DNA of 64,000 nucleotides from Rhizobium sp. Q54 (GCA_945902735.1 CAMDNF010000001.1:10594-74593); one strand, 5' to 3'. Numbered from the stretch's first letter, positions 4,434 to 34,333 are shown. Made by a program: numbers and translations. Notes: generated by a model from the letters alone, not told the origin.

Positions 4434-4500
4434 CGCGAAACTCTAATCTCATCCCTGAACGAATCAAGAACTATGAGGCGGTTTCCCGCGCCGACCGTGG

Positions 4501-8033: not shown

Positions 8034-8200
8034 CCTGAGGCTACCTGACTTTCTGTTTTGATCCCCCGCCGGCGATGTTCTTGTGACCCGCCTTGGGAGG
8101 CCTTCTAGCGGTCAGCTTGGCCTCGGGCAACCTGGCAAATGCGTCACACACCGAGGGGCGAGCTGTCGCATCATTGCCACACCCCTAGAGTCTAGTAAAA

Positions 8201-9067
8201 TCAGGCTAAAATTTGATGAATATGGGCTTCGATGTCCAAAAGGTCGCGCCAGGCCTCGCGCTTGGCGGCGCTCTGGCGGAGCAAATAGGCCGGGTGGAAG
8301 ACCGCAATCGTGGGGGTAGGGGTGGCCAAACCGGGTCGGTGGTAGTCGAACCAGCGACCGCGGAGGCGGGTGATCCCCTCGCCCGTATTGAGGAGCGCCT
8401 TGGCCGAGATGCCACCCACGAGGATCAGAATTTTGGGTGCAATCAGTTCGATCTGACGCTCGACAAAGGGCTGGCAGGTGGCGATTTCATCGGCGGTTGG
8501 CGTTCGGTTGCCGGGAGGCCGCCAGGGCAACACGTTGGTGATATAGACCTTGGTGCGATCGAGCCCGATGGAGCCCAACATGCGGTCCAAGAGCTGGCCG
8601 GCCGGCCCGACAAAAGGCAGGCCCCGGCGGTCTTCTTCCGCGCCGGGCGCCTCGCCGACCAGCATGATGGTGGCGTGCGGATTGCCATCACCGATCACGG
8701 TGGTGGTCGCGGTGCGTTTGAGCGGGCAGGCATCGAAACGGCCCAGCGCGGCACGGAGCTCGTCGAGATTGGCGCAGGCGGCCGCAATCTCGCGGGCGCT
8801 CAAGGCGGCATCGCTCAATGCGATTGGCGCCGCCGGTGCGGCCATCGCGGGCGCCATCGAGACCGGTGGGCGTGGTGGTGGCGCTGGGCTTGGCGCAGCC
8901 GGCGTTCCCACGTTCTGTGCGCTCGGTTGAGCAGCGGGAATCCGGGCTGGTTGCGGCGGCAGGGCGCTCGCGCTCAGCCAATCGATCGGCGTCTCGCCGA
9001 CCGCCATATCGACCCCGGCCTCGACATAAAATGCGAGCAGTGCCCGGTGGTCTTGCGCCATTGTCAT
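8201..9067 (-). CDS. uracil-DNA glycosylase, family 4 (phage-SPO1-polymerase-related)
   Basis: C-terminal domain [31 protein letters not shown]...[15 protein letters not shown]...HPAYLLRQ is the UDG family 4 signature; N-terminal Pro/Ala-rich low-complexity linker. Confidence 0.8.
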
Positions 9068-9207
9068 GGCCGGTGGCTTCGGGGTGGAACAGGTCCCATC
9101 GTTCTTAGATACGCTCGATTGACCGCTTTCGGCAATCGGACCATAAGTGCGCCCGATGGAACGCCGATCGCGCCGTTTCAGAGGCTTGAGCGCCGCGGAG
9201 GGCCAGG

Positions 9208-10845
9208 ATGAGCCGCGAGTCGATGAGCTACGATGTGGTCGTGGTGGGCGGCGGGCCGGCGGGGCTCGCGGCGGCGATCAAACTTAAGCAATTGGCCCAG
9301 GCGGCTGGGCGTGAGCTCAGTGTTACCGTGGTCGAGAAAGGTTCCGAAATTGGTGCCCATATTCTTTCGGGCGCGGTGTTCGAGACCAAGGCGCTGGATG
9401 AGCTGATTCCAGATTGGAAGGCCAAAGGCGCGCCGCTCAGGACGCCAGTCAGCGCCGAGGAATTCAGCGTGCTGACCAAGCGGCGCCGGTTCACCTTTCC
9501 GGCCTGGATGCTGCCGTCCCAGTTGCATAACAAAGGCAATTACATCATCAGCCTCGGCGAGCTTTGTCGCTGGCTCGCCACCGAGGCCGAGGCGCTTGGG
9601 GTTGAGATTTATCCGGGCTTCGCGGCGGCGGAGGTGCTCTATCACCAGGATGGCAGTGTCAAAGGCGTTGCAACTGGCGATATGGGCGTCTCGCGCGAAG
9701 GGGCGCACAAATCGAGCTATCAGCCGGGTATGGAACTCCATGCCAAATACACGCTGTTCGCCGAGGGCGCGCGGGGCTCGCTATCGAAAGAGCTGATCGA
9801 GCGCTTCAAGCTGCGCGCCGATGCGGCGCCGCAGACCTACGGCATCGGTATCAAAGAGATCTGGGAGGTCGAGCCGGCCAAGCATCGGCCCGGCCTCATT
9901 CAGCATAGTTTCGGCTGGCCGCTCGATTCGCGCACCTATGGCGGTAGTTTTCTCTATCACTTCGACACGAATCTGGTGTCGGTCGGTTTTGTCGTCGCGC
10001 TCGACTATCAGAACCCCTACCTCTCGCCGTTTGACGAGTTTCAGCGCTTCAAGACCCATCCGGCGATTCGTCCAACGTTCGAAGGCGGTAAGCGCATTGT
10101 CTATGGCGCGCGGGCGATCAATGAGGGCGGCTGGCAATCGATACCGAAGCTCAGCTTTCCGGGTGGTGCACTCATCGGTTGTGCCGCCGGCTTCGTCAAC
10201 GTGCCCAAGATCAAGGGCAGCCACAATGCGATGAAGACCGGCATGTTGGCCGCCGAGGCCGTGTTCGCGGCGTTGCAAGCCGGGCGGGACGGTCATGACG
10301 AACTCGTCGATCTAACCAAAACCGTGCGCCGCTCGTGGGTTGGGCGCGAGTTGCGCGAGGTGCGCAATTGCCGCCCGGCCTATCGGTTCGGCCTCGTGCT
10401 CGGCACGCTCATTAGCGGTTTCGAACTCTGGTCGCGCGGCCTTTTGCCATGGACGCTCGGGCACCATGAAGACCATCGCGCGCTCAAGCCGGCGGCGCGG
10501 AGCCGGAGAATCGACTATCCGAAGCCCGATGGCGTGGTCAGTTTCGACAAGCTCTCCTCGGTGTTCATTTCGAACACCAATCACGAGGAAGATCAGCCGG
10601 TACATTTGAAGCTGCGCGATCCAAGTGTGGCGATTCGCCTCAATTTGTCGCTTTATGACGCGCCCGAGCAGCGCTATTGCCCTGCCGGCGTTTACGAAAT
10701 CGTCACTGAAGCCGCGGGGCCGAGGCTGCAAATCAACGCGCAAAACTGCGTGCACTGCAAAACCTGTGATATCAAAGACCCGAGTCAAAACATCAATTGG
10801 ACGGTTCCCGAGGGCGGCGGCGGCCCAAATTATCCCAATATGTGA
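9208..10845 (+). CDS. electron transfer flavoprotein-ubiquinone oxidoreductase (ETF-QO)
   Basis: 545 aa; FAD-binding [11 protein letters not shown]; C-terminal 4Fe-4S ferredoxin motif CPAGVYE...[12 protein letters not shown]. Confidence 0.9.
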
Positions 10846-10934
10846 GCCGCATTTTGGTAAGAACCTGTGATTACAATTTTTGTCGCGCGCCCTTCGGCGT
10901 GCCCGTTGCCTTTGCTGTGAGCTGATCTAGGATC

Positions 10935-12761
10935 ATGGACGTGACCCCACGACTTCCCCCGTCTGCCGCTCAGGCGCCCCGCCATGGATTGCGTTGGTTG
11001 CGCCTGTGGGGCCTCGCCGCGCTTTGCGCGGTGATGGCTGTCGCGATCGTCGGCGCGTGTGCGCAAAGCGATTCGGCGAGCGAGAAAAAAACCGCCGAGG
11101 CGATCTCAAGCGAAGAGGCGATTACCCACAAAGAAGTGGTATCGGGCTTCGGCAATTATCTTGCCGGTCGATTTGCCTATGCGAGCCATGACATCGGCTC
11201 GGCCGCCGAATATATGCGCAAAGCGCTCGATGATGATCCGGGCGATCGGAGCTTGTTGCAGCGAACCGTAACGCTCTTGGTTGCTGATGGGCGTATTGAT
11301 GACGCCGTCGCGCTGGCGCCGCGCTTGATCAAGGCGGAGCCATCGGCGCGCATCGCGCATTTGCTACTGGCGCTCGACAACATAGGTCGCGGTCGCCGCG
11401 AGGCGGCAAAGACCAATCTGACCAGCATTCCGCGCGATGGCGTCTACGTCTTGTTGGTGCCGGCGATCGAGGCCTGGGTGGCGTTCGCCAATGGCGATAG
11501 CAAGGGCGCCTTCGACTTGCTTGCACCATTGTCACAGCGCCAAGCCTATAGCGGCTTTTACAGCTTCCAGGCCGGTTTGATCGCCGATGCGGCGGGCGAC
11601 GCCAAAACGGCCGAGGCGCAATATAAGAAGGCCATCGAGGCGACACCCGGCGGCTCGCTGAGAACGGTGGAAGCCTTTGGCGCGCTTCTGGAGCGCGCGG
11701 GTCGACTCGATGAAGCAAAAAAAATCTATAACGCCTATCTCGCTGAGAACGAAGAATCGGTCTGGCTTGAGACCGTGCAAGAGCGCCTTGCGCGCGGTGA
11801 AAAGCCTGGGCCCGCGCTGAGCGATCCCTTGGATGGCATTGCCGAAGCGTTGTTCGATGCGGCGAGCGCGGTGCCGCAAGAAAGCGGCAATGATGCGGGC
11901 CTCCTCTATGCCCGCTTGGCGCTCGACATAAGGCCGGATTTCGACGTCGCGCGGATTCTTATCGGTGAAACGTTCGAGGCTTTGAGGCGGTTCGACGACG
12001 CCTATGCGATCTATCGCGCGGTCTCGCCGGAATCAGCGTTCTCGTGGACGGCGCGGCTGCGTGCCGCCGGGAGCCTGGCTGAGATCGGGCGGGTCGATGA
12101 GGCCATCGCGGATTTGCGCGTCGCTATGGCCGAACGGCCGGACCGCTCTGATGGCGCCGTTACGCTCGGCGATGTGCTGCGTCAAGCCGAGCGCTATGGT
12201 GATGCCGCCGAGGCCTATGATTTGGCCTTCGCACGGATCAAGACGATTGAACCGCACCATTGGTCGCTCTTCCATGTGCGCGGGATATGCTTCGAACGGA
12301 TCAAGAATTGGCCGCGTGCCGAAGCGGATTTTCTCAAGGCGTTGGAACTCGAACCCGAGCAGCCGCTGGTGCTCAATTATCTCGGTTACTCATGGGTTGA
12401 GCAGGGCACCAATCTTAAGAAAGCGCTCGACATGATCGAGCGGGCGGTCGAGCTGCGCCCCAATGATCCCTATATTGTCGATAGTATCGGTTGGGCGCTG
12501 TACCAGACCGGCGATTATTCGGGCGCTATCTACAATCTCGAAAAGTCGGTCGAGTTGCTTTCGAACGATCCGGTCATCAATGACCATTTGGGCGACGCGT
12601 ATTGGCAGGCCGGACGCAAGACGGAAGCGCGCTTCCAATGGGAGCGTTCGCTGAATCTGAATCCTCAGGACGAAATGGCGGCGAAGATTCGGTTGAAGCT
12701 CAATCGTGGCCTCGCGGCAGAGGCCGAAACCGATACAACGCGCCAGACCAAGACCGAGTGA
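10935..12761 (+). CDS. tetratricopeptide-repeat lipoprotein
   Basis: 608 aa; signal peptide with lipobox IVGAC; multiple TPR units (e.g. AEAQYKKAIEA, AEADFLKALELEP, AIYNLEKSVELL). Conserved position upstream of ispE. Confidence 0.7.
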   Translation: MDVTPRLPPSAAQAPRHGLRWLRLWGLAALCAVMAVAIVGACAQSDSASEKKTAEAISSEEAITHKEVVSGFGNYLAGRFAYASHDIGSAAEYMRKALDDDPGDRSLLQRTVTLLVADGRIDDAVALAPRLIKAEPSARIAHLLLALDNIGRGRREAAKTNLTSIPRDGVYVLLVPAIEAWVAFANGDSKGAFDLLAPLSQRQAYSGFYSFQAGLIADAAGDAKTAEAQYKKAIEATPGGSLRTVEAFGALLERAGRLDEAKKIYNAYLAENEESVWLETVQERLARGEKPGPALSDPLDGIAEALFDAASAVPQESGNDAGLLYARLALDIRPDFDVARILIGETFEALRRFDDAYAIYRAVSPESAFSWTARLRAAGSLAEIGRVDEAIADLRVAMAERPDRSDGAVTLGDVLRQAERYGDAAEAYDLAFARIKTIEPHHWSLFHVRGICFERIKNWPRAEADFLKALELEPEQPLVLNYLGYSWVEQGTNLKKALDMIERAVELRPNDPYIVDSIGWALYQTGDYSGAIYNLEKSVELLSNDPVINDHLGDAYWQAGRKTEARFQWERSLNLNPQDEMAAKIRLKLNRGLAAEAETDTTRQTKTE

Positions 12762-13663
12762 GCGCCGCGTCTCTTGCCGGCGCGGTACGTATCGCCGCGC
12801 CTGCCAAGCTGAATTTGTTTCTCCATATCGTCGGCCGTCGGCCCGATGGCTATCATTTGCTCGATAGCCTGATCGCTTTTGCCTCGGTGCATGACACGCT
12901 GGTCGCTGCACCGGCGCACCAACTCACATTGACGCTCGATGGACCGTTCGGCGCCGATCTTGACGGCGCGGGCGATGATAATTTGGTGTTGAAGGCGGCG
13001 TGGGCCTTGGCCGAGGTGGCCGGTCAACCGGCGCAGGGCGCGCTCAGATTGACCAAGCGCCTACCCGTTGCGTCGGGTATCGGGGGCGGCAGCGCCGATG
13101 CGGCGGCGGCCATCAAGGCGCTGGTGAAATTATGGCGGCTGACACCAACGCCAGAGCAGCTATCAAGCATTGCCTTGTCGCTTGGCGCGGACGTTCCAGT
13201 TTGCCTTGCGGGTCATGTAGCACGCGTTGGCGGTATTGGTGAGGGCATCGCGACGGTTGGTCGGTTGCCGAATTGTGGGCTTGTGCTGGTCAACCCGAGA
13301 GTGCCGCTCGCAACCGCTGCGGTGTTCAAGGCCCGGCAAGGCGTCTTCTCTCGGCGGGCGTCCTTTGATCGCATGCCAAACGATGTCGCGGGTTTGGCCG
13401 CCGCGCTTCGTAACACGAACAATGATCTCGAAGCGCCGGCGCGGGCTCTCTTGCCCTTGATCGATGACGTGCTGGAGGCGATCGCAGGGCTCAAGGGCTG
13501 TCTGATCGCTCGCATGTCAGGTAGCGGGGCGACGTGTTTCGGTTTGTTCGCTGATGAACGAGCGGCGCAATCGGCCAGTGCCGATTTGGCGACGCGGAAT
13601 CAAGGTTGGTGGGTTGCGCCAGGTCGATTATTGAACGCGACCGACGATCTCGTCCCGCTCTGA
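12758..13663 (+). CDS. ispE: 4-diphosphocytidyl-2-C-methyl-D-erythritol kinase
   Basis: GHMP kinase motifs PAKLNLFLHIVGRRPDGYHLLDS and LPVASGIGGGSADAAA. Start assigned to GTG 12758-12760 overlapping the upstream stop (GTGA); the track ORF extends upstream to 12602. Confidence 0.85.
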   Translation: MSAASLAGAVRIAAPAKLNLFLHIVGRRPDGYHLLDSLIAFASVHDTLVAAPAHQLTLTLDGPFGADLDGAGDDNLVLKAAWALAEVAGQPAQGALRLTKRLPVASGIGGGSADAAAAIKALVKLWRLTPTPEQLSSIALSLGADVPVCLAGHVARVGGIGEGIATVGRLPNCGLVLVNPRVPLATAAVFKARQGVFSRRASFDRMPNDVAGLAAALRNTNNDLEAPARALLPLIDDVLEAIAGLKGCLIARMSGSGATCFGLFADERAAQSASADLATRNQGWWVAPGRLLNATDDLVPL

Positions 13664-13669
13664 TCGTTT

Positions 13670-15004
13670 CTACAATTCCCAACGGCGCATGCCGGGTGGG
13701 AGCGCGACATTTCGCCAAATGCCCTTGAGGTCGGCGACCAAGCCACTTGGCGCGACCAAGCGGCCGAAGGTCGCGCTTTCGAATGTGGTGTAGAGCCGGT
13801 GCGCCACGGCGCCGAGCACACAGGCATAGCCGTTCAAGCCATCGAGGCTCTTGACCAGTGTGATCCCGTAAAAGCGCGCTGCCTCGCCCGGATCGGCGAG
13901 CGGGTCGTGCACATCGACGCGGTAGCCCCGCTCATTCAGCCGCGTCACGATATCGACGACGCGGGTATTGCGTAGATCGGGCACGTTTTCCTTGAAGGTG
14001 AGGCCGAGCACGAGAATGGATCGCTCGGCGGGCTGACCCAAGGAATCGGCGAGCGAATCCGCGATGAACGCGCCCATGGCATCGTTCAGCCGACGCCCCG
14101 CCAAAATGATCTCTGGGTTGTGGCCGATCTCGACCGCGCGGTGCGCCAGATAATAGGGGTCGACGCCAATGCAGTGACCGCCAACGAGGCCCGGCTTGAA
14201 GTCGAGGAAATTCCACTTCGTGCGTGCAGCCGCCAACACATCGTGCGTCGCGATGCCCAATTTGTGGAAGATCTGCGAAACCTCATTGATGAAGGCGATG
14301 TTGATGTCGCGCTGCGCGTTTTCGATGACTTTGGCGGCCTCTGCGGTTTTGATATCGCGCGCGATGAAAACGCCGCCTGACGTGATCGCGCCATAAAGGG
14401 CGCCGAGCCGCGCGGCGATCTCAGGCTTTTGCGCCGCCACCACCTTGGTGATGGTCTCGACACGATGCTCGCGATCGCCGGGGTTGATGCGCTCCGGCGA
14501 GTAGCCGAGCTCGAAATCGACACCGGCCCGGAGGCCCGAGGCGCGGGCCAGGACCGGCGCGCAAATCTCTTCGGTGACGCCGGGCCAGACCGTGCTCTCG
14601 AACACCACGATGGCGCCCTTGGAAAGGGCGCGCCCAACCGTTTCCGAGGCTGAAATGACGGCCGATAGATCTGGCTTGTTCTGTTCGTCGACCGGGGTGG
14701 GGACGGTGACGATGTAAAACTCGGCGCCCTTTATCGCCGCGGGATCATCGCTGAGCTCGAGCGCGCTTGTCTTGAGCGCCTGGCCGTCCACTTCGCGCGT
14801 CCGATCATGCCCGGCGCGGAGTTCGGCAATGCGCGAGCGGTCGATATCAAAGCCGATGACCCGATGATGCCGTGCCATGGCGACCGCGAGCGGCAGGCCG
14901 ACGTAACCGAGGCCGACAATCACGACATTGGTGCGGTGGAGCTGGGCGGGCAAGGCGATCGGACGCTTTTGTGGGGTTGGCTGTCGCCGAGCTAATCGCC
15001 TCAA
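13670..15004 (-). CDS. nucleotide-sugar 6-dehydrogenase (UDP-GlcNAc/UDP-GalNAc dehydrogenase, WbpO/TviB-like)
   Basis: 444-aa ORF; Rossmann VVIVGLGYVGLPLAVAMA, catalytic GGHCIGVDPYYL, C-terminal UDP-binding domain. True start probably a few codons inside the track ORF. Confidence 0.85.
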   Translation of the reverse strand: MRRLARRQPTPQKRPIALPAQLHRTNVVIVGLGYVGLPLAVAMARHHRVIGFDIDRSRIAELRAGHDRTREVDGQALKTSALELSDDPAAIKGAEFYIVTVPTPVDEQNKPDLSAVISASETVGRALSKGAIVVFESTVWPGVTEEICAPVLARASGLRAGVDFELGYSPERINPGDREHRVETITKVVAAQKPEIAARLGALYGAITSGGVFIARDIKTAEAAKVIENAQRDINIAFINEVSQIFHKLGIATHDVLAAARTKWNFLDFKPGLVGGHCIGVDPYYLAHRAVEIGHNPEIILAGRRLNDAMGAFIADSLADSLGQPAERSILVLGLTFKENVPDLRNTRVVDIVTRLNERGYRVDVHDPLADPGEAARFYGITLVKSLDGLNGYACVLGAVAHRLYTTFESATFGRLVAPSGLVADLKGIWRNVALPPGMRRWEL

Positions 15005-15091
15005 ATAGCGCCCATGTCAACCGGCGCGCGGTGGATTTTCGACGACCGAGCTTGCGGAGCGGGCCGCAGCCGTCTATAGCCGGGCCCCAAC

Positions 15092-16072
15092 ATGTCCACC
15101 CTGGTCACTGGCGCCGCCGGCTTTATTGGTTATCACCTTTCCGAGGCGTTGCTCGCCCGCGGCGAAGCTGTGATCGGCGTCGACAATCTGAACGATTATT
15201 ATTCGGTGAAGCTCAAGGAAAGCCGGCTTGAGCGGCTGAAGCGCCACAAGGCGTTTCGTTTCCTCAACGCCGATATTGCCGAGCGCGAGGCCTTCGCCTC
15301 GGCCCTACCCGAGAAGGCGACGATCACCGCCATCGTTCACATGGCGGCGCAAGCGGGCGTTCGCTATTCGTTGGACCACCCCGATGCCTATGTTCGTTCA
15401 AACGTCATGGGTCAGCTTTCGATTCTCGAACTGTGCCGTGTTCTGCCGGCGCTGAAGCACCTGGTCTATGCGTCGACCAGTTCGGTCTATGGCGGCAACA
15501 CGAAGCAGCCGTTTTCGGAGGATGATCGGGTCGATGATCCGATTTCGCTTTATGCGGCGACCAAGAAATCGGCCGAGTTGATGAGCCATGTCTATGCGCG
15601 GCTCTTTGGCATTCCGAGCACCGGGCTTCGTTTCTTCACGGTCTATGGGCCTTGGGGGCGACCCGATATGTCCGCCTATTTGTTTGCCGATGCGATTTTC
15701 GCCGATCGCCCGATCAAGCTTTTCAATGGCGGCGACATGCGACGCGATTTCACTTATGTCGATGATATTGTCGATGGTGTGGTGCGTGTGCTCGACGGCC
15801 CGCCGGTTGCGCGGGACGGCCGACCGCCCGAGCAGATTTACAACATTGGCAATCATCGGCCCGAACAATTGACGCATTATGTGAGCGTGCTCGAGCGGGC
15901 GATCGGCAAGAAGGCGATTATTGAGCTCGCGCCGATGCAGCCGGGCGATGTTAAGGAAACCTACGCTGACATTTCGGCGATCCAGCGCGATTTCGGCTTT
16001 CAGCCCAAGACCTCGATCGAAGAGGGTGTGCCTCGTTTCGTTGCCTGGTTCAAAGCCTATCACGGGGTTTAG
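15092..16072 (+). CDS. NAD-dependent nucleotide-sugar epimerase (UDP-glucuronate/GalNAcA 4-epimerase-like)
   Basis: 326 aa; MSTLVTGAAGFIGYHLSEALL, YASTSSVYG, YAATKKSAE (the SDR YxxxK motif). Divergently paired with the dehydrogenase. Confidence 0.85.
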   Translation: MSTLVTGAAGFIGYHLSEALLARGEAVIGVDNLNDYYSVKLKESRLERLKRHKAFRFLNADIAEREAFASALPEKATITAIVHMAAQAGVRYSLDHPDAYVRSNVMGQLSILELCRVLPALKHLVYASTSSVYGGNTKQPFSEDDRVDDPISLYAATKKSAELMSHVYARLFGIPSTGLRFFTVYGPWGRPDMSAYLFADAIFADRPIKLFNGGDMRRDFTYVDDIVDGVVRVLDGPPVARDGRPPEQIYNIGNHRPEQLTHYVSVLERAIGKKAIIELAPMQPGDVKETYADISAIQRDFGFQPKTSIEEGVPRFVAWFKAYHGV

Positions 16073-16105
16073 ACCGGGCGTTCGCAGCAAGAAGAGTCGC
16101 GCTGA

Positions 16106-17788
16106 ATGAGCGGTGATCAGGCGGGACCCAAATCGTTGGCCGCTGAGCGCTTTAATGAAGCGGCGGCGCGCCATGTCGGCGGGCAAATGGCCGAGGCCGA
16201 GGCGCTCTATCGCGCCGCGCTGGAGCTACAGCCCGACCATGTCGAGGCGCTCGGCAATCTAGCCGCTATTTGTGCGCAAACCGGTCGGTTCGACGAGGCG
16301 GAGACGCTGTGCCGCCGTGCGCTGGCGCTCAGGCCCGATTTCGCGCCGGCGCTCAATACGCTCGGGATTGTGCTTCGCCGGCTCAATCGCTTTGAAGAGG
16401 CCGTGGTCTGTTACCGGCAGGCGCTCGAAATCGCGCCCGACGATGTGGCCACTTGGGGCAATCTTGGCCTCGCGCTGCGCGCGCTCGGTCGGCACGAAGA
16501 CTCCGTGTTTCCCTTCGAGCGTGCGGTCGCGTTGCAGCCGACGCGTGCGTCGAACCACCTCAGTCTAGGCAATGCGCTGAGTGACCTTGGTCGCCTCGCG
16601 GAAGCGGAAGCTGTCTATCGGCAAGCGATCGCACTCGATGCCAATTACGCGGAAGCGCATGGCAATTTGGGCAGCGTCTTGCGCAAACTCGGTCGCCTCG
16701 ATGAGGCTGAAACCGAGCTCAGCACGGCCTTGCGTCTCAATCCCAAGCTGATCTCAACGCGCTATAATTTAGCGAATGCGCACAAGGACGCACTTCGCTT
16801 TGAGGCGGCGATCACGGCCTATCGAGAGGTATTGAGCCTGGATCCAAATCATGTGGCGTCGCATTGGAACCTATCTCACGCACTGCTCGCGGCCGGGCAT
16901 TTGGCGGAGGGCTTCGCCGAGTATGAATGGCGCTGGCGCTTGCCCGCGATGGGATCGCACGGATTCTCAGGGCAAATGTGGGGTCTGTCTGCAAAGCCCG
17001 GTGTGCCTGTCGTGGTTCATGCCGAGCAGGGTTTTGGCGATGCGATCCAATTTGCTCGTTATGTGCCGCTGATCGCGGCGCGCGGTCATCCCGTTACCAT
17101 CAAGGTGCGCGAGCCGCTTCGCCGATTGTTCAACACCATTCCGGGCGTCCATGTTGTAACCGACATGCCGTCGGGTACTCAAATGGGGCGCCATTGCCCG
17201 ATGCTCAGCCTGCCTCATGCTTTCGGTACGCGTCTTGAGACAATTCCCGCCAACGTGCCCTATTTGCAGGCTGAGCCACACGCGGCGGAAAGGTACCGGG
17301 CGAGATATGTCGGTGACCGCCTAAGGGTCGGGCTGGTGTGGCGGGGCAATCCGGAGAAAGATGGCGATGCGTGGCGCTCGCTTGATCCGGCCGAGCTTCG
17401 CTCGCTACTCGCGTTTGATGGCGTGAGGTTTGTCAGCCTGCAAAAACAGCCTATTCCCGGTGATCTTGATGTTCTCCGCCGCTTCGCCGGGCTCGATAAC
17501 CCGATGCCCGAAGTCGAGGACTTCGCTGATACCGCGGCGCTTATTTCTGCGCTCGATGTGGTGATCTCGGTCGATACTGCGGTGGTTCATCTGGCGGGCG
17601 CTTTGGCAAAACCGGTATGGGTGCTGTTGCCTTTTGCGCCGGACTGGCGTTGGTTGACCGGGCGAGACGATAGCCCATGGTATCCAACCGGGCGGCTCTT
17701 CCGGCAATCGAAACCGGGCGATTGGGCCGGGGTTATCGAGCGGGTTGCCTTGGCGCTCGGGGCGTTGATCGACCAGAAGATTTCTTAG
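16106..17788 (+). CDS. TPR-repeat protein with C-terminal GT9 (heptosyltransferase-like) glycosyltransferase domain, paralog 1
   Basis: 560 aa; about 7 TPR units; then EQGFGDAIQFARYVP ... FADTAALISALDVVISVDTAVVHLAGALAKPVWVLLP..DWRW. The (D/S)VDT..HLAGALG/AKP motif is the GT9 family signature. Confidence 0.75.
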   Translation: MSGDQAGPKSLAAERFNEAAARHVGGQMAEAEALYRAALELQPDHVEALGNLAAICAQTGRFDEAETLCRRALALRPDFAPALNTLGIVLRRLNRFEEAVVCYRQALEIAPDDVATWGNLGLALRALGRHEDSVFPFERAVALQPTRASNHLSLGNALSDLGRLAEAEAVYRQAIALDANYAEAHGNLGSVLRKLGRLDEAETELSTALRLNPKLISTRYNLANAHKDALRFEAAITAYREVLSLDPNHVASHWNLSHALLAAGHLAEGFAEYEWRWRLPAMGSHGFSGQMWGLSAKPGVPVVVHAEQGFGDAIQFARYVPLIAARGHPVTIKVREPLRRLFNTIPGVHVVTDMPSGTQMGRHCPMLSLPHAFGTRLETIPANVPYLQAEPHAAERYRARYVGDRLRVGLVWRGNPEKDGDAWRSLDPAELRSLLAFDGVRFVSLQKQPIPGDLDVLRRFAGLDNPMPEVEDFADTAALISALDVVISVDTAVVHLAGALAKPVWVLLPFAPDWRWLTGRDDSPWYPTGRLFRQSKPGDWAGVIERVALALGALIDQKIS

Positions 17789-17837
17789 TGATTCTCGGCC
17801 AAAATCACGCAGGGCGTTCACGACGGCGCGGGCGGTA

Positions 17838-20138
17838 ATGGCGCGGACCAAAAATCGACAGGCCGATGCAAATAGCAAGCTCGCATTGGCTCAACGCTTG
17901 GCCGAGGCGACAGCCTTGCAGCAAAAGGGTGCCGCTGGTCCGGCCGAGCGCCTCTATCGCGAGATGCTCGCCGCCGATCCCAACCAGGCCGATGCGCTGC
18001 ACAATCTCGGCGTGATTTGCGCGCAATCATCGCGGCTCGACGAGGCGCTTGACCTGATCCAGCGCTCGCTCGCGCTGAAGCCAGATTTCGCCGCCGCCCA
18101 TAACAGCCTCGGTATCGTGTTCAGGCGAATGGGGCGTGGTGCCGACGCCATCGCGAATTATGAACGGGCGCTCGACCTCGATCCGTCATACGTCGACGCC
18201 TGCCAAAATCTCGGCCTCGCTCTGCGGCTCGCGGGGCGGTTCGACGAGGCGGTGGTAAGACTGGGCGACGTGGTCCGCAAGAAGCCGGCCTCGCCTGACG
18301 CGCAATTCAATCTCGGGCAGGCGCTCAAGGACGCCGGTCATGTTGAAGCGGCGATGACCGCGTTTCGCGAAGCGATTCGCTTGCGCCCCGACCATGCCGA
18401 GAGCCAACGCGCGCTCGGCGCGGCGCTTCTTCAAACGGGCAAGAATGACGAGGCGCTTATCGCTTATGAATGCGCACTCGCGCTGAAACCCGATCAGCCG
18501 GAACTGCTCAGCCAAATCGGCAATCTGTTGGTGGGCCAAGACCGCCTCGATGAGGCAAAGAGCGCCTTTCGCCGCGCCGTCGCCTTGAAGCCCAATAGCC
18601 CTGAATTGTTGTGCAATCTGGGCGTTGCGCTCAATAATATGGAGCTGTCCGATGAGGCGATCGAAAGCTTCAATCGGGCGCTCGAACTCAGGCCCGATTT
18701 TGCTGAAGCGCTGACTAATCTCGGCGTCGCGTTGCAAGTTGTAGGTCGTCTGGCCGAGGCCGATACGGTTTTGACGCGGGCGGTCGCGTTGAAGCCGGAT
18801 TTAGCAGCCGCTCATACCAATCTCGGCATGCTGCGGGGTACACAAGACCGGGTCGATGAGGCCATCGCTTGCTATCGGCACGCGATTTCCTTGCAGATCG
18901 ACGCCATGGAGGCGCATCAGAATTTGTGCGCGGTCCTGCTGATGCATGGCCAGGTCGATGACGCGATTGAAGCAGGCCGGCGGGCCATCGAAATATCGCC
19001 AAACCATCATGCCTCGCGCTTCAATTTATCGACCGCTCTTTTGACCGCCGGTGAGTTCGCGGAAGGTTGGGAGGACTATGAAGCACGGCCGAGCCACAAG
19101 GAGGCGGGGCGCCGGCTCAAACATGGGCCGCTCTGGAGATTGGAGGCGCCGCGCGGTTCGCGGGTGTTGGTTTATAGCGAGCAAGGGTTGGGCGATTCAA
19201 TTCATTTCGCCCGTTATGTTCGCCTCGTCGAAGCGCGGGGCGATCGCGTCGTACTCGAGACGCGCGGCCCGCTGCGCCGACTGATGAGCAGCCTCGGTAA
19301 AGCAACGCTGATCGAGCCGAATGAACCGGTGCCTGAGGTCGATTATCAAATTTCGCTTGTCAGCCTGCCGCGTGCCTTTGGCACCAGGCTCGACACCATA
19401 CCTGCCGATGTTCCCTATTTGCGGGCGAATGAGAATGATGTCGCGCGGTTTCGTGCGCGCTTTGCTGGCGAGAAATTGTCTATCGGCTTGGTTTGGCGCG
19501 GCAACCCAAATCATAAGAACGATCGGAATCGTTCGCTCGATCCCACGCTTCTCGGGCCGCTGTTCAACGTTGATGGCGTGCGCTTTGTCAGCCTTCAAAA
19601 GCAGCCACGTGACGGCGATCTCGACCTGTTGCGGCGCCTCGGGCCGATCGAAGACCCCACATCAGAACTCAAAGACTTTGCCGATACCGCGGCGCTGATC
19701 GAAGCGCTCGATCTGGTGATCTCGGTCGATACGTCGGTCGCCCATTTGGCCGGCGCCTTGGCGAAGCCGGTGTGGATTCTCCTGCCGTCGTCGGGCGATT
19801 GGCGCTGGTTAATCGACCGGGAAGATAGCCCGTGGTACCCGACCGCGCGTCTATTTAGGCAGGCGAGCTATCGCGATTGGCCAAGTGTGATCGAGCGTGT
19901 CGCCGCCGCTTTGCGCGAGAAGGCCGCCCATGCGCCGGTGCGCGAAGGGGTCGCGCCGCCAGGGTGGTGCAGGATCCCTTCATGGCGGCCGTCGCGCATC
20001 AGCAGGCGGGCCGTGTCGCGGAGGCGGGAGCGCTTTATGACGGGCTCCTTGAGCGCGAGCCCGCTCACGTGGCGGCCCTACTCAATCTCGGTTCGCTTAA
20101 GCTCCAGCGCGGCGACCACGCTGATGCTCTATCGCTAA
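17838..20138 (+). CDS. TPR-repeat protein with C-terminal GT9-like domain, paralog 2 (ORF lacks a stop at the expected end near 19950 and reads into paralog 3)
   Basis: 766-aa track ORF; about 11 TPR units; SEQGLGDSIHFARYV ... FADTAALIEALDLVISVDTSVAHLAGALAKPVWILLP. Paralogs end about 15 aa after the DW(P/A/S/E)xVIERV motif, but this ORF continues about 70 aa further in a different frame from paralog 3. Confidence 0.65.
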   Translation: MARTKNRQADANSKLALAQRLAEATALQQKGAAGPAERLYREMLAADPNQADALHNLGVICAQSSRLDEALDLIQRSLALKPDFAAAHNSLGIVFRRMGRGADAIANYERALDLDPSYVDACQNLGLALRLAGRFDEAVVRLGDVVRKKPASPDAQFNLGQALKDAGHVEAAMTAFREAIRLRPDHAESQRALGAALLQTGKNDEALIAYECALALKPDQPELLSQIGNLLVGQDRLDEAKSAFRRAVALKPNSPELLCNLGVALNNMELSDEAIESFNRALELRPDFAEALTNLGVALQVVGRLAEADTVLTRAVALKPDLAAAHTNLGMLRGTQDRVDEAIACYRHAISLQIDAMEAHQNLCAVLLMHGQVDDAIEAGRRAIEISPNHHASRFNLSTALLTAGEFAEGWEDYEARPSHKEAGRRLKHGPLWRLEAPRGSRVLVYSEQGLGDSIHFARYVRLVEARGDRVVLETRGPLRRLMSSLGKATLIEPNEPVPEVDYQISLVSLPRAFGTRLDTIPADVPYLRANENDVARFRARFAGEKLSIGLVWRGNPNHKNDRNRSLDPTLLGPLFNVDGVRFVSLQKQPRDGDLDLLRRLGPIEDPTSELKDFADTAALIEALDLVISVDTSVAHLAGALAKPVWILLPSSGDWRWLIDREDSPWYPTARLFRQASYRDWPSVIERVAAALREKAAHAPVREGVAPPGWCRIPSWRPSRISRRAVSRRRERFMTGSLSASPLTWRPYSISVRLSSSAATTLMLYR

Positions 20139-22012
20139 TTGAACGCGCGGCCGCGCTCGAACCAAATAGCGCCGATGTGCATAACAGCCTCGGTTCGATC
20201 TTTGAGAAGCAAGGGCGATTGGAGGAAGCGGCGGCGGGTTTTGCGCGCGCCGCCGCGCTTCGCCCAGGCGCCATCGGTTTATTGCTGAGCCTTGCGTTCG
20301 TTCAACGCAAACTGGCGCGGTACGGCGAAGCGGTCATGACCGGCGAACGCGCGTTGGCGCTTGATCCCCGCTCGGTCGATGCGCTCAATTCCTTGGGCGT
20401 TTCACTTAAGAACGCCGGCCACAATGATGCGGCGTTGGATTGTTTTCGTCGGGCGATCGAATTGCGGCCGGTCAACCCCCAGGTCCATCTCGGTTATGCC
20501 AATGTGCTCTATGAGCTTAAACGCTTCGATGATGCCGTGGTCGCCTATCGCCGCGCCATTGAACTCAAGCCCGATTATGGCGAGGCGCATGGCAATCTTG
20601 GCGTCGTGTTGCAGGCGCTCGAGCGTTATGGCGAAGCACAAGATAGTTTTAAACGCGCGCTTGAGTTGATCGGCGATTCGCCCGAATTGTTGACCACCTA
20701 TGGGCTTACACTACAGGCGGTGGAGCGCTATGACGACGCGATCGTTCAGCATCGGAAAGCGCTCGCGCTCAAGCCTGATTTTCCATCGGCCTACAATAAT
20801 CTTGGTATCTCGCTCGCCGCGCTGAACCGCCGTGATGAGGCGCTCGCCGCCTATCGTCGTGCGCTGGAGATTCGCCCCGACTACCCGGAAGCGCTCAACA
20901 ATTTGGCCAATCTCTTGAAGGAATTGTCGCGGCCCGACGAGGCGCGGGCGGCCTATAATCGCGCGCTAGAGATCAGGCCCAATTTTCATGAGGCCGAGCT
21001 AAACCGCGCCAATATCGACTATGGGATGGGGGATATCAAAAAGGCGATCGGTGCCTATCGCGAAATCTTGGCGAAGGCGCCTGCGATGGTCGATACGCAT
21101 TTCAATTTGGCCTTGGCGCTGCTCACGCTGGGTGAATTCGCCGAAGGGTGGGAGGAGCATGAATGGCGCTGGCAGCGTCCCGGCGTCAAACCACATGGCT
21201 TCAAACAGCCGATGTGGCATCAGGCCGCGCCGCGCGGCGCCCGGGTTCTCGTTCATTCGGAGCAAAGCTTTGGCGATGCCATCCAGATGGCGCGCTATGT
21301 GCCGCGTATCGTCGCCCTCGGCCACCGCGTCAAAATCGGCGCGCCGAAGCCTTTGCGTCGTTGGCTCGCCACACTGCCCGAGGTTGAGGTCATCCAGACG
21401 GTCGAGCGCCATAACGAGGTTGATTTTCAAATTCCGTTCCTCAGCCTGCCACGTACGTTTGGTACAAGGCTTGAGACCATTCCGGCTGAGGTGCCCTATC
21501 TTCCAGTGCCGCTCGAGGAAGCGGCGCGCTTTCGCAAAAAACTCGGTGATGGGTTCAAGGTCGGCCTGGTTTGGCGCGGTAGCAAAATCCATAAGAACGA
21601 TCGCAACCGCTCGATTGATCCGCGTTTGTTGGCGCCCCTGTTCGGTATCGAGGCTGTGCGGATCGTCAGCCTTCAAAAGGAGCCGCGTCCGGGTGATTTG
21701 GCGGTCATGCGCGATCTCGGTCCGTTCATTGATCTCACGGCCGAGTTTTCCGATTTCGCGGCCACAGCCGCCTTTGTCGAAACGCTCGATCTCGTCGTCG
21801 CGGTCGATACCTCGGTCGCGCACGTCGCCGGCGCGCTCGGCAAGCCGCTATTTTTGATGCTGCCCTTCGTACCCGATTGGCGTTGGTTGCTCGACCGTGA
21901 CGATAGCCCCTGGTATCCCAGTGCGCGCCTGTTTCGCCAAACGCAGATCGGCGATTGGTCGGATGTCATAGAGCGTGTCGCGGCGGCCCTCCGCGAACGC
22001 GTTGCGCGATAA
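19982..22012 (+). CDS. TPR-repeat protein with C-terminal GT9-like domain, paralog 3
   Basis: Start placed at ATG 19982 (MAAVAHQQAG); the track ORF begins at a TTG at 19877. About 12 TPR units; SEQSFGDAIQMARYVP ... FAATAAFVETLDLVVAVDTSVAHVAGALGKPLFLMLP. Confidence 0.7.
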   Translation: MAAVAHQQAGRVAEAGALYDGLLEREPAHVAALLNLGSLKLQRGDHADALSLIERAAALEPNSADVHNSLGSIFEKQGRLEEAAAGFARAAALRPGAIGLLLSLAFVQRKLARYGEAVMTGERALALDPRSVDALNSLGVSLKNAGHNDAALDCFRRAIELRPVNPQVHLGYANVLYELKRFDDAVVAYRRAIELKPDYGEAHGNLGVVLQALERYGEAQDSFKRALELIGDSPELLTTYGLTLQAVERYDDAIVQHRKALALKPDFPSAYNNLGISLAALNRRDEALAAYRRALEIRPDYPEALNNLANLLKELSRPDEARAAYNRALEIRPNFHEAELNRANIDYGMGDIKKAIGAYREILAKAPAMVDTHFNLALALLTLGEFAEGWEEHEWRWQRPGVKPHGFKQPMWHQAAPRGARVLVHSEQSFGDAIQMARYVPRIVALGHRVKIGAPKPLRRWLATLPEVEVIQTVERHNEVDFQIPFLSLPRTFGTRLETIPAEVPYLPVPLEEAARFRKKLGDGFKVGLVWRGSKIHKNDRNRSIDPRLLAPLFGIEAVRIVSLQKEPRPGDLAVMRDLGPFIDLTAEFSDFAATAAFVETLDLVVAVDTSVAHVAGALGKPLFLMLPFVPDWRWLLDRDDSPWYPSARLFRQTQIGDWSDVIERVAAALRERVAR

Positions 22013-22018
22013 CTGGCG

Positions 22019-23389
22019 GTGACAATGGAGGACGAAACATCGGCGGATGAGCGGCTGGCCCGAGCGGTCACGGCCCATAGTCGGGGGGATCTGACCGAGG
22101 CCGAGCGACTTTATCGGGTGGTCTTGACCGCATGCCCGACACAGCGTGATGCGCTCAACAATCTCGGTGTGATTTGCGCTGAATCGGGGCGCATCGATGA
22201 AGCGAAGGCCCTCATCGAACGCGCCCTTGCGGCACATCCTGATTTTGCCGTAGCGCATAACAGTCTGGGCATCGTGCTGCGCCGGCTCGATCGCCTGGAT
22301 GACGCGGTCGATCATTATCGGCGCGCCGTCGAGCTCGATAATCGCTATGCCGAGGCCTTCACCAATCTCGGTCTGTCATTGCGGGCGCTTGGGCAGCACG
22401 ATGAGGCGATCGCAGCGATGCGTCGTGTCGTGACCTTGCGGCCGGAATCGGCTGATGCCCATATGAGCCTCGCCTCGACTCTGCTGATGACCGGTAATTT
22501 CGCCGAGGGCCGGCGCGAATATGAGTGGCGTTGGAAATTGGAGCGTCTGCCGCCACCGCCGGTGCTCGCGCCGCCTTGGACGCTCGATGCGCCGAGGGGA
22601 AGTTCCGTGTTGCTCAATACCGAGCAAGGCTTCGGCGATACCATTCAATTTACGCGCTTTGCGCCTTTCCTTGTCGAACGGGGCCATCGCGTAGTGCTTG
22701 AGGTGCGCGAGCCATTGCAGCGCCTGTTTGCTGGTGCTTTACCGGGCGTCGAGATCATTGTGCGGGGCGCGAAGATCGGGCCGGTTGACCGGCAGATCGC
22801 GCTGTTGAGCCTACCGCGCGTCATGGGAACCACGCTCGATACTATTCCCACGAAGGTGCCCTATTTGTCGGCCGATATTGACGCGGTTGAGCGGTGGCGC
22901 GCGCGGCTTGATTTCAAACGACCAAACATTGGATTGGTGTGGCGTGGTAGCGCGACGCATGGCAAGGACCGCGCCCGTTCGCTCGATCCCGCATTGCTAG
23001 CGCCGTTATTTGCGATCGATGGTGTGCAGCTGGTCAGCCTGCAAAAAGCACCAAGGCCTGGTGACCTCGATGTTATCGCGCGGCTCGGTCGGCTCGAGGA
23101 TTGGACGGCGGAGCTTGACGACTTCGCGGATACCGCCGCGCTGATCTCAGCCCTCGATTTGGTGATCACGGTCGATACGTCGGCCGCGCATCTGGCAGGC
23201 GCCTTGGCCAAGCCGTTCTGGGTCATGCTGCCGCACGTGCCCGATTGGCGTTGGCTTCTGGCGCGTGAGGATAGCCCGTGGTATCCGACCGCGCGGCTGT
23301 TTCGCCAAACCCGCCTGGATGATTGGGAGGGCGTTATTCAACGGGTTGGCACGGCGCTGATTGAGTGGTGGGGAAAGCGCGCGCCGTAA
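22019..23389 (+). CDS. TPR-repeat protein with C-terminal GT9-like domain, paralog 4
   Basis: 456 aa; about 4 TPR units; TEQGFGDTIQFTRFAP ... FADTAALISALDLVITVDTSAAHLAGALAKPFWVMLP. Confidence 0.75.
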   Translation: MTMEDETSADERLARAVTAHSRGDLTEAERLYRVVLTACPTQRDALNNLGVICAESGRIDEAKALIERALAAHPDFAVAHNSLGIVLRRLDRLDDAVDHYRRAVELDNRYAEAFTNLGLSLRALGQHDEAIAAMRRVVTLRPESADAHMSLASTLLMTGNFAEGRREYEWRWKLERLPPPPVLAPPWTLDAPRGSSVLLNTEQGFGDTIQFTRFAPFLVERGHRVVLEVREPLQRLFAGALPGVEIIVRGAKIGPVDRQIALLSLPRVMGTTLDTIPTKVPYLSADIDAVERWRARLDFKRPNIGLVWRGSATHGKDRARSLDPALLAPLFAIDGVQLVSLQKAPRPGDLDVIARLGRLEDWTAELDDFADTAALISALDLVITVDTSAAHLAGALAKPFWVMLPHVPDWRWLLAREDSPWYPTARLFRQTRLDDWEGVIQRVGTALIEWWGKRAP

Positions 23390-23413
23390 TGCGATTCAGG
23401 CTAAGATGTCTGC

Positions 23414-24154
23414 ATGAGGGAGTTCGTCGAGATCGTCGTGTTGCCGCCGACCAGCCTATTCATTTTGGGCGCGCTCGGTCTCGTGCTGTTGGTCTTTCGT
23501 GTTCGCTTCGGCGGATTTCTTTGCGTGCTCGCCCTCATTCTGCTCTATGCGCTTTCGACCCCGGCCGTGGCACGCGCGATTGGCATGCCACTCAATGCGG
23601 CGCCCGCGCTCGAGCCGGCGCGCTTCGAGGATGATGTTGGCGCCATCGTGATTCTGGGTGCCGGGCGCTATGCCCAGGCGCCCGAATATGGCGGCGATAC
23701 GATCAGCGGCAACGGGCTCGAGCGCGTGCGCTATGGTGCGTGGCTGCATCGCAAGACGGGTCGGCCCATTTTGGTCAGCGGGGGCGACCCCGATATGGCT
23801 GGCATCCCCGAGGCAACCTTGATGAAACGCGCGCTCGAAAGCGAATTCGGCGTGACCGTGGCGTGGATCGAGGCGGCCTCGGCCAACACCGCCGAAAACG
23901 CCAGCCTCAGCCAGGCGATTCTTGAGAAAGCGGGCATCAAGAAGATTTATCTGGTTACCCACGCCCAGCATATGCGCCGCGCGGTCGAGGCGTTCGAGCG
24001 GACCGGGCTTCTTGTCGTGCCGGCGCCGACGATCCTGCCCCGGCAACGCGGCCTTGCGCCCGCAGACTTCATCCCCACGGGCGGCGCCATGAGCACGAGC
24101 GCGCGCGTGGTCCATGAATGGCTCGGCCGCGCCTGGTACGCGCTGGCGGAGTGA
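23414..24154 (+). CDS. DUF218 (YdcF/ElyC/SanA-like) membrane protein
   Basis: 246 aa; two N-terminal TM helices then AIVILGAG...ILVSGG...NTAENA...KIYLVTHAQHMRR, typical of DUF218. Confidence 0.7.
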   Translation: MREFVEIVVLPPTSLFILGALGLVLLVFRVRFGGFLCVLALILLYALSTPAVARAIGMPLNAAPALEPARFEDDVGAIVILGAGRYAQAPEYGGDTISGNGLERVRYGAWLHRKTGRPILVSGGDPDMAGIPEATLMKRALESEFGVTVAWIEAASANTAENASLSQAILEKAGIKKIYLVTHAQHMRRAVEAFERTGLLVVPAPTILPRQRGLAPADFIPTGGAMSTSARVVHEWLGRAWYALAE

Positions 24155-24183
24155 CAAGCGCCATGTTAGAGAGGCGGCGCCAA

Positions 24184-24257
24184 TGGGGCGTGGCCAAGCG
24201 GTAAGGCAACGGTTTTTGGTACCGTGATCCCAGGTTCGAATCCTGGCGCCCCAACCA
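24184..24257 (+). tRNA. tRNA-Gln (anticodon UUG)
   Basis: Hand-folded cloverleaf: acceptor TGGGGCG/CGCCCCA with the U1:A72 pair typical of bacterial tRNA-Gln; anticodon stem ACGGT/ACCGT with loop TTTTGGT (anticodon TTG); T-arm CCAGGTTCGAATCCTGG; 3' CCA encoded. Coordinates +/-2 nt. Confidence 0.85.
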
Positions 24258-24282
24258 TTTCCTCGACCGACCGTGAAAAGGA

Positions 24283-24936
24283 ATGACGGGCATGTCAGCC
24301 AAGACGACCCTGCCCATTCGCAGTACCGATTCCGGGCGCGCCGCCGCCGAGCAGGTGCGGGCCTTGCTGCGGCGTTCCATTGCGGTGAAAGAGAGTTTGA
24401 TCGCCGGCCATGCCGAGCGTGTGGTCGAGATCGCTGAGCTATGCGCGGCCGCGCTTGCCGCCGGCGGCAAATTGATGTTTTGCGGCAATGGCGGCTCGGC
24501 CGCCGATGCTCAGCACCTCGCGGCCGAACTTTTGATTCGGCTGCGCTCCGAGGTCAATCGTCAGGGGCTACCGGCGCTCGCGCTCGCCACCGATTCCTCG
24601 TCGCTCACCGCGTGCGGCAATGACTATGACTTCGAAACCTATTATGCCCGCATGGCCGAAACCTTGGGTCGACCCGGCGATGTGCTGATCGCGATCACCA
24701 CCTCGGGCCGCTCGCCCAATATCGTGCGCGTGCTGCAAGCGGTGCGAACAAAGGGCATTAAGACGGTTGGCCTGCTTGGCAATGATGGCGGGCCGGCGCT
24801 GGCCGAATGCGATCTCGCGTTGATCGTGCCGTCAAAGGAAACCGGGCGCATTCAAGAAGCCCATATCGCGATCGGCCACGCGGTGATGGAGCTGATCGAG
24901 GACCGCCTGCTGGCGGCTGGCTTGATCAAGAGTTGA
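24283..24936 (+). CDS. gmhA: D-sedoheptulose-7-phosphate isomerase (SIS domain, GmhA)
   Basis: 217 aa; GKLMFCGNGGSAADAQHLAAEL ... ITTSGRSPNIV are the GmhA/SIS motifs. Confidence 0.85.
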   Translation: MTGMSAKTTLPIRSTDSGRAAAEQVRALLRRSIAVKESLIAGHAERVVEIAELCAAALAAGGKLMFCGNGGSAADAQHLAAELLIRLRSEVNRQGLPALALATDSSSLTACGNDYDFETYYARMAETLGRPGDVLIAITTSGRSPNIVRVLQAVRTKGIKTVGLLGNDGGPALAECDLALIVPSKETGRIQEAHIAIGHAVMELIEDRLLAAGLIKS

Positions 24937-31996: not shown

Positions 31997-32088
31997 GGGG
32001 AATCATAGCACGACCTAGAGTTTTGGTTAGTCGGCAGCGGAAGATGGCAAGCTCTGCCGCAACATTATGATCGATTTGTTTTGGTCTG

Positions 32089-32215
32089 CCCCACCCGGCA
32101 ACGCAAGCGTTGCCGCCCTCCCCCTCAAGGGGGGAGGGGAAGGAAATTCGGATTGTCGTGGTGCGTACCTTTTACCCCCTCCCCCTCGACGGGCGAGAGT
32201 TGGGGTGGGGGTGAC
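32089..32215. repeat. REP-like nested-palindrome intergenic element (family R2), copy 1
   Basis: cACCCGGcAACGCAAGCGTTgCCGCCCTCCCCCTCAAGGGGGGAGGGGa plus a second G/C-rich hairpin; homologous to 57708-57765. Confidence 0.6.
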
Positions 32216-32235
32216 TGCGAAAGCGACTTGGTGCC

Positions 32236-34332: not shown

Positions 34333-34333
34333 A

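Follow-up and report, generated by a model that had tools for sequence, protein, structure and literature searches.

The closest described system to the locus analysed here is FlmG, which in Caulobacter crescentus and Brevundimonas subvibrioides binds flagellin through its tetratricopeptide repeats (TPRs) and transfers the sugar with a glycosyltransferase (GT) domain of the GT-B fold (Ardissone et al. 2020, PMC7591256). The GT-B domain sets the choice of donor, either pseudaminic acid (Pse) or legionaminic acid (Leg), orthologs have been reported in Caulobacterales only, and the protein has been presented as founding a new class of cytoplasmic O-glycosyltransferases. Here, we analysed a stretch of 64,000 nucleotides from Rhizobium sp. 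Q54 (GCA_945902735.1 CAMDNF010000001.1:10594-74593), termed the window below, in which four tandem TPR-GT genes, T1 to T4, form an array. The array is a four-module representative, located outside a flagellar locus, of the main body of the family of FlmG- and GT9-like TPR-glycosyltransferases. We lean slightly towards the reading that T1-T4 co-operate as cytoplasmic protein O-glycosyltransferases that are guided by their TPRs and act on one substrate or glycan.

Several other systems share parts of this design. OGT and SPINDLY (GT41) have the same overall layout as T1-T4, in which a TPR superhelix leads into a GT-B catalytic domain. The flagellin sialyltransferases Maf-1 and GlfM-Maf-2 also use a TPR module to recognise flagellin for cytoplasmic O-glycosylation, but unlike T1-T4 the Maf enzymes have a GT-A catalytic domain (MAF_flag10) and a TPR that is C-terminal or placed on a separate protein. 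The GT9 enzymes WaaC and WaaF (PF01075) are only 11-17% identical to T1-T4, lack a TPR arm and work at the membrane on Kdo2-lipid A. The bacterial autotransporter heptosyltransferases (BAHT) TibC and AAH form a ring-type acceptor-binding assembly where T1-T4 have a TPR arm; identity is 11%, and their four-Cys iron finger is not conserved in T1-T4, in which no Cys occurs among the conserved columns.

Each of the four products consists of an N-terminal TPR run and a C-terminal domain of 290-300 aa. The repeats were counted with a hidden Markov model (HMM) built on the T4 model.

T1: 16106-17788, plus strand; 560 aa, 8 TPR repeats and a predicted GT9-like GT-B domain.
T2: 17838-20138, plus strand; 766 aa, 12 TPR repeats and a predicted GT9-like domain ending at about 19955.
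T3: 19982-22012, plus strand; 676 aa from the ATG, 11-12 TPR repeats and a predicted GT9-like domain.
T4: 22019/22025-23389, plus strand; 456/454 aa, 5 TPR repeats and a predicted GT9-like domain.

An earlier reading of this DNA, made from the sequence alone (the sequence-only reading), had ascribed one architecture of TPRs plus a C-terminal domain of ~290 aa to the four genes, which the Pfam TPR matches and the repeat HMM bore out. It had further raised the idea of TPR-guided protein glycosylation, and this idea has gained strength, as it now draws on a full-length homologue, FlmG, beyond mere analogy. The Caulobacter flmG gene was located by an exact-match scan of reference genomes with a cloning primer from the supplement of PMC7591256, which led to locus L001; the open reading frame (ORF) found there encodes 596 aa as published, and its 3' end is the sequence of the published reverse primer. 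In BLASTP, T4 and FlmG aligned over 452 aa with 28% identity (E 7e-35), a span that takes in the final TPRs and the complete GT domain, and the C-terminal domains of T1-T4 are each 28-30% identical to FlmG. With hhalign, the family profile could be matched to the C-terminal domain of FlmG across 265 columns (99.7% probability, E 4e-27), whereas the match to WaaC spanned 31 columns only. Because of the BLASTP match, the domain identities and the profile match, T1-T4 are placed in the FlmG family; judged from sequence, they are end-to-end homologues of Caulobacter FlmG and not its orthologs.

T1-T4 and FlmG share the succession of TPRs and a ~290-aa C-terminal GT-B domain, the motifs EQGxGD, DxAAL..DLVI..LAGA and PWYP, and a soluble, cytoplasmic nature. 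They differ at the donor site, where T1-T4 keep the GT9-type VDTxxAH and DWRW while FlmG has GFSNxxN and SWTR. FlmG is moreover a single module, whereas T1-T4 are four modules outside any flagellar, Pse or Leg context, and T1-T4 fall in the large main body of the family, in contrast to the reported confinement of FlmG orthologs to Caulobacterales. The non-FlmG residues at the donor site argue against a CMP-nonulosonic acid (CMP-Pse or CMP-Leg) as donor. A literature search returned no characterised family member besides FlmG, and nothing relevant on TPR together with 'glycosyltransferase family 9'.

Among T1-T4, the C-terminal domains are pairwise 53-58% identical. The GT9 signatures quoted in the sequence-only reading proved to be real and correspond to invariant columns of the family, namely EQG(F/L)GD, VDTxxAHLAGA, DWRW and SPWYPxxRLFRQ. 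T3 carries the variants EQSFGD and AHVAGA, and the catalytic motifs are intact in all four modules. T1-T4 are soluble, cytoplasmic proteins, in which neither a signal peptide nor a transmembrane segment was found. The assignment to GT9 made in the same reading stood at the level of the fold, while the PF01075 HMM was borderline, with scores of 23.3 (T1), 23.8 (T2), 20.1 (T3) and 21.1 bits (T4) near the gathering cut-off of 22 and a match limited to one 31-residue stretch (profile positions 174-205 of 247).

Searching PDB sequences with the C-terminal domain gave no meaningful match, and folds were therefore compared. The AlphaFold model of the T4 domain, with a predicted local distance difference test (pLDDT) score of 90.4, adopts a GT-B fold with two Rossmann-like lobes, to which WaaF and WaaC are closest and TibC is equally close; the next fold scored 12.1 and the bacterial OGT XCC0866 10.3. 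Full-length T4 was modelled as a rigid unit (pLDDT 95.2, predicted template modelling score, pTM, 0.91) with ten TPR helices packed on the GT domain. Foldseek returned SPINDLY/OGT as top PDB matches of this model (E ~1e-15) with template modelling scores (TM-scores) of only 0.35-0.39, a modelled resemblance that reflects a common architecture and a different catalytic family. The GT41 catalytic domain (PF13844) was not found in T1-T4.

The donor motif could be compared with WaaC residue by residue. In hhalign, SVDTGLSHLTAALDRP was aligned to VDTSAAHLAGALAKP, and the residues matched by Pfam are those of the WaaC donor motif. WaaC D261, T262 and H266 correspond to the family-invariant D, T and H, and the D-T..H motif is near-invariant among 229 family domains. 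T1-T4 thus share the donor-binding D-T-x-x-x-H with WaaC, and solved GT9 structures are their closest GT-B folds. From its position, we infer that the GD loop is likewise equivalent to that of WaaC. It is the modelled fold, not the HMM, by which the C-terminal domain appears GT9-like.

When 1.84 billion cluster representatives (clusters at 50% identity) were searched exhaustively with the family profile, 47,719 matches were obtained at E <= 1e-3, of which 29,896 remained at E <= 1e-30; a word-indexed search gave at least 7,977 matches among the best 8,000 scored candidates. The best 150 of the 47,719 matches were all chains with 2-6 domain copies, up to 3,140 aa long. The family is spread over Alpha- and Betaproteobacteria, Acidobacteria and enterobacterial plasmids; two to four domain copies were present in 15 of 80 metagenome loci, and Azospirillum replicons hold up to 12. 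Within this much larger, uncharacterised family, FlmG seems to represent a specialised side lineage.

Genes for secreted proteins recur next to family members elsewhere. Co-occurrence with flagellin loci, which the sequence-only reading had brought up, was seen in 3 of the 80 metagenome loci, against ~0.5 expected by chance in 802 kb (a rough estimate), and the domains in all three carry the T1-T4 motif set. One of these flagellar loci (L057) encodes FliD (2786-4207), flagellins (4384-5259 and 5403-6209) and a 2101-aa four-module protein (7448-13753). A TPR-GT41 (OGT-type) protein (13875-15815) follows the four-module GT9-like protein there. On the second, a contig of 43% GC (L070), four tandem TPR-GT genes (3-7600) are followed by three 278-aa flagellin genes (8326-11527); this arrangement directly mirrors the four-gene array of the window. 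The third (L033) contains a flagellin, a 1056-aa family member and FlgI. A Ralstonia homologue is located 3.5 kb from a fliF-fliK operon, and Komagataeibacter homologues lie between chemotaxis and flagellar genes.

In two unrelated bacteria, Kluyvera ascorbata (plasmid pKATP2, L102:2210-12689) and Thalassospira marina (L103:8728-14759), homologues adjoin autotransporter genes and a TPR-sulfotransferase (PF13469). Sulfotransferase domains also occur in 6 of the 80 metagenome loci (L082, L046, L044, L030, L019 and L045), in 4 of them apparently in the same ORF as the GT domain (coordinates checked for L082), and this recurrent pairing suggests sulfated protein glycans. On an Azospirillum oryzae plasmid (L009:5529-19349), tandem members of 729 and 997 aa adjoin a 2615-aa 'calcium-binding protein', with GDP-mannose and CDP-glucose dehydratase genes as well as GT2 and GT4 genes in the vicinity.

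In the window, the array is bordered by the following genes.

13670-15004, minus strand: nucleoside diphosphate (NDP)-sugar 6-dehydrogenase, divergent from the array operon, with all three Pfam UDPG_MGDP_dh domains.
15092-16072, plus strand: UDP-glucuronate (UDP-GlcA) 4-epimerase-like short-chain dehydrogenase/reductase (SDR), 33 nt 5' of T1, with a Pfam Epimerase score of 179 bits.
23414-24154, plus strand: DUF218/ElyC-like membrane protein with a hydrophobic N-terminus, 24 nt 3' of T4, with a Pfam DUF218 score of 104.5 bits.
24184-24257, plus strand: tRNA-Gln (UUG), called by ARAGORN.
24283-24936, plus strand: GmhA-like sedoheptulose-7-phosphate isomerase (SIS protein), with an SIS_2 match and PDB phosphoheptose isomerases at ~165 bits.

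Related loci were retrieved with the DUF218 neighbour as a handle, which yielded three related lineages with a syntenic block of the order dehydrogenase, epimerase, modules, DUF218, gmhA, hbd and etfAB. The same array is present in four other assemblies, and the DUF218 gene is its constant right-hand neighbour within the T1-T4 clade. In a neighbour-joining tree of the 229 domains, T1-T4 fall within one nine-leaf clade, with T3 as sister to T2. The four genes are true paralogs, as the sequence-only reading had supposed, and the four-module set is ancestral to the clade. The serial duplication envisaged there is not recent; it is old, given the 53-58% identity and the presence of the same modules in sister lineages. 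A horizontal origin, likewise proposed, was rejected: the array occupies an orthologous position across the clade, in four related lineages, its paralogs form one lineage-specific clade, and its GC shift amounts to ~1%. The higher AT content on which that proposal had drawn is real and marginal (61.3% GC in the array versus 62.6% in the window, with GC3 of 0.67-0.69 versus 0.69-0.80 in the flanking genes).

In the first lineage (L098/L099), whose flanks are 86-94% identical to the window, a T1 ortholog is followed by one 1919-aa ORF that is an in-frame fusion of T2, T3 and T4 (L098:4223-9982). The second (L096), with flanks 78-90% identical, has a 1069-aa two-module ORF made of T1 and another unit (1776-4985) and a 1435-aa T2-T3 fusion (5697-10004). 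The boundaries within the window can be read against these fusions. No stop codon is present near 19950, where T2 had been thought to end; its frame stays open to 20138 and closes with a 60-aa out-of-frame tail that overlaps T3 by 157 nt, and the T2|T3 boundary (19950-20138) is a frameshift. Translation across the frameshift gives the same linker as in the fused orthologs, and the tail appears to be what is left of a T2-T3 fusion that a frameshift disrupted. The T3 frame is open already from a TTG at 19877, and its own ATG coincides with the start of the first TPR. T3 and T4 are in the same frame, separated by 6 nt with a single in-frame TAA and two codons (22010-22024); the database protein P0001 is 100% identical to T4 and starts at ATG 22025. 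Spacers of 6-50 nt, as claimed before, hold for T3-T4 and for T1-T2 (49 nt), not for T2-T3.

The third lineage is the nearest one (L006, GCA_009691045.1), with flanks 98-99% identical to the window and 95-98% at the nucleotide level. Here, a single 459-aa hybrid gene (L006:8485-9864) replaces all four, its 5' end deriving from T1 and the remainder from T4. It maps to window positions 16106-16393 and 22298-23389 and equals an in-frame deletion of 5904 bp, with the crossover in a short common TPR-coding stretch that encodes GIVLRRL(N/D)R. As L006 is a metagenome-assembled genome, an assembly artefact retains some probability, yet it is considered unlikely: the deletion preserves the frame, and the identity between T1 and T4 at the junction runs to only ~9 bases in a row.

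The modules also diverge quickly. T1 shares 68% identity with its ortholog in L098 and 65% with that in L096, and module orthologs in the two lineages with all four modules are 52-68% identical to the window; a module identity of 60-68% compares with 86-94% for the flanks, amounting to a roughly three times faster divergence. The modules fuse and split freely, a classical sign of acting together, and recombine among themselves, which would result in a strain-variable glycan. Because they are co-inherited, co-oriented and fused in sister lineages, the modules most likely serve one pathway. A diversification of acceptor specificity among the four paralogs, as advanced in the sequence-only reading, is less likely than such co-operation, given that relatives fuse the modules into single polypeptides.

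The TPR-GT9-like family probably decorates secreted proteins with sugars. By analogy with FlmG and TibC, and from the secreted-protein genes adjoining homologues in other genomes, we infer that the acceptor of T1-T4 would be a protein. In the mechanism that we propose, a TPR superhelix of 5-12 repeats would form a rigid unit with a compact GT-B domain that descends from the GT9 fold. The TPR arm of each module may hold an unfolded or export-competent protein substrate, or else a partner module, and the GT domain would move a sugar from a soluble nucleotide-sugar to the TPR-held substrate. If WaaC and TibC are taken as guides, the aspartate in the EQGxGD loop could act as the catalytic base, the R-S loop could bind phosphate, and the VDTxxAH motif, aligned to the WaaC donor residues, could form the donor-sugar site. 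Since modules are found fused, they may act sequentially or at several sites, such that the four would either attach successive or different sugars to a single secreted or surface protein or serve many of its sites, ahead of its export.

Candidate donors are suggested by the neighbouring genes. T1-T4 are probably co-transcribed with the UDP-GlcA 4-epimerase, and this co-oriented gene makes UDP-galacturonate (UDP-GalA) a candidate donor; the GT9-type site together with the nearby gmhA, 0.9 kb 3' of the array, does the same for NDP-heptose. A fuller version of the proposal, which we put forward tentatively as a possibility, is a four-module assembly line of GT9-derived, OGT-like enzymes that builds an O-glycan varying from strain to strain, with GalA or heptose as possible constituents, on a secreted non-flagellin protein, exemplifying the uncharacterised main body of a family in which FlmG is a side branch.

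A number of observations weigh against protein glycosylation by T1-T4. FlmG is just 28-30% identical and differs at the donor site not only from T1-T4 but from almost all other members, and its function is therefore not directly transferable to T1-T4. No candidate acceptor (flagellin, autotransporter or repeats-in-toxin protein) was found in the 64-kb window or the 7 kb upstream. Elsewhere, a flagellin is missing from 77 of the 80 metagenome loci, and most sampled loci lack an obvious secreted-protein neighbour; P0005 and P0082 are located among unrelated genes, and some other family members are solitary and surrounded by unrelated genes. The nearest solved folds include lipid-A-core heptosyltransferases, and the immediate neighbours of the array, which provide UDP-GalA synthesis, a DUF218/ElyC-like protein and GmhA, are envelope-polysaccharide genes. 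Capsule polymerases also carry TPR domains, which they use for oligomerisation; one of them, Cps3D (8qoy), appeared at low rank in both fold searches.

Part of this evidence would fit envelope-glycan enzymes, which would add GalA, heptose and other sugars to a lipopolysaccharide (LPS) core, O-antigen or capsule intermediate at the inner membrane face and need their TPRs only for complex assembly. To the closeness of WaaF and WaaC, the kept WaaC donor motif (SVDTGLSHL, here VDTxxAHL), the epimerase, dehydrogenase, ElyC-like and GmhA neighbours and the precedent of TPR-bearing capsule polymerases such as 8qoy comes the clustering of Azospirillum homologues with GDP-mannose and CDP-glucose dehydratase, GT2 and GT4 genes. 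We nonetheless consider this function rather unlikely. FlmG, the one homologue that has been characterised, O-glycosylates a protein that its TPR binds, the equally close fold match TibC is a protein glycosyltransferase as well, T1-T4 have no segment for membrane association, and several homologues reside within flagellin or autotransporter loci. Besides, the envelope-type neighbours do not travel with the family. All of them were confirmed in the window, as had been stated on the basis of the DNA alone; among 80 other family loci, none had a dehydrogenase, DUF218 or GmhA homologue, and a distant SDR was seen in 2. The sugar-nucleotide and gmhA setting is therefore limited to the T1-T4 lineage, and a family-wide linkage to gmhA, dehydrogenase or DUF218 was rejected. 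More distant DUF218 homologues (~50% identity) do not adjoin TPR-GT genes either.

It is less probable still that T1-T4 are plain equivalents of FlmG, adding Pse, Leg or another sugar to flagellins while being encoded away from the flagellar genes. Full-length homology to FlmG and the excess of flagellin loci over the chance estimate, with same-motif members in three flagellar loci, two of which have four modules (L057 and L070), would be in line with this. On the other hand, no flagellar or nonulosonic-acid biosynthesis gene was found in the 64-kb window or the 7 kb upstream, the donor-site residues are unlike those of FlmG and speak against CMP-Pse or CMP-Leg, the literature restricts FlmG orthologs to Caulobacterales, and the near relative L006 survives on a single hybrid module. 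Decay of the array, with dispensable or partly pseudogenised modules, is highly improbable, for although T2 lacks a proper stop and carries the out-of-frame tail, the T2/T3 frameshift and the T3|T4 stop interrupt the array, three module-equivalents are lost in L006 and the modules diverge fast, the ORFs are long and intact with every family-invariant motif in all four modules, T3 has its own ATG exactly at the first TPR, the array recurs in the four other assemblies, and all four modules persist in two lineages at 52-68% ortholog identity.

The locus itself is not unique; it exposes a very large family that is experimentally almost untouched, and shows FlmG to be a divergent member of it. Typical members have heptosyltransferase-type donor-site residues, evolve rapidly and are encoded as sets of several modules, either in tandem or fused. 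Provided that flagellins, autotransporters and further secreted proteins are indeed their substrates, the family would represent a major unexplored route of bacterial protein glycosylation and also a source of surface-antigen variation. Should T1-T4 indeed work as an assembly line, a widespread general system of pre-export protein glycosylation would so far have gone unrecognised. The module fusions point to which enzymes to study jointly, and the short T4 (454 aa), which is confidently modelled, offers a tractable biochemical entry point.

The genes flanking the array are themselves conserved. The dehydrogenase is kept in L006, L098 and L096, and its true start is likely near 14953 because the L006 ortholog has 427 aa. 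It scored 388 bits with the NCBIfam NDP-sugar dehydrogenase model and 418 bits with a TviB-like model, the latter under that model's cut-off, and its top PDB matches are UDP-ManNAc/Cap5O-type dehydrogenases. The epimerase is 80-98% identical across the three orthologous loci and matches 5u4q (370 bits) and the Bacillus cereus UDP-GlcA 4-epimerase 6zl6 (174 bits) in the PDB. For the GmhA-like protein, gmhA was the top NCBIfam match, yet under the equivalog cut-offs; its gene is probably a transcription unit of its own. A promoter and terminator scan was uninformative, with 17 terminator-like sites versus 13.7 expected and 0 of them intergenic.

The remaining window encodes housekeeping functions, i.e., electron transfer flavoprotein (ETF) and its ubiquinone oxidoreductase (ETF-QO), IspE, IleRS, MutL, PurD, LpxK/LpxL and others. 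Small genes of the GIY-YIG or PIN/antitoxin type are inserted between DUF218 and gmhA in L098 and L096, and in L096 toxin-antitoxin genes sit between DUF218 and the GmhA-like gene; the region around tRNA-Gln therefore seems to acquire small mobile genes. Compared with L006 (18489-18980), the window contains ~1.8 kb of extra sequence at 32013-34334, including an ORF of the GIY-YIG family (32264-32998, minus strand). In a 760-aa ORF on the minus strand (49085-51367), an LPG_synthase_TM region is joined to a Wzy_C/O-antigen-ligase domain, a combination of two membrane-protein families that is unusual. Two tandem short-chain dehydrogenase paralogs (34339-35064 and 35092-35814, minus strand) cross-match in blastn at ~68% identity.

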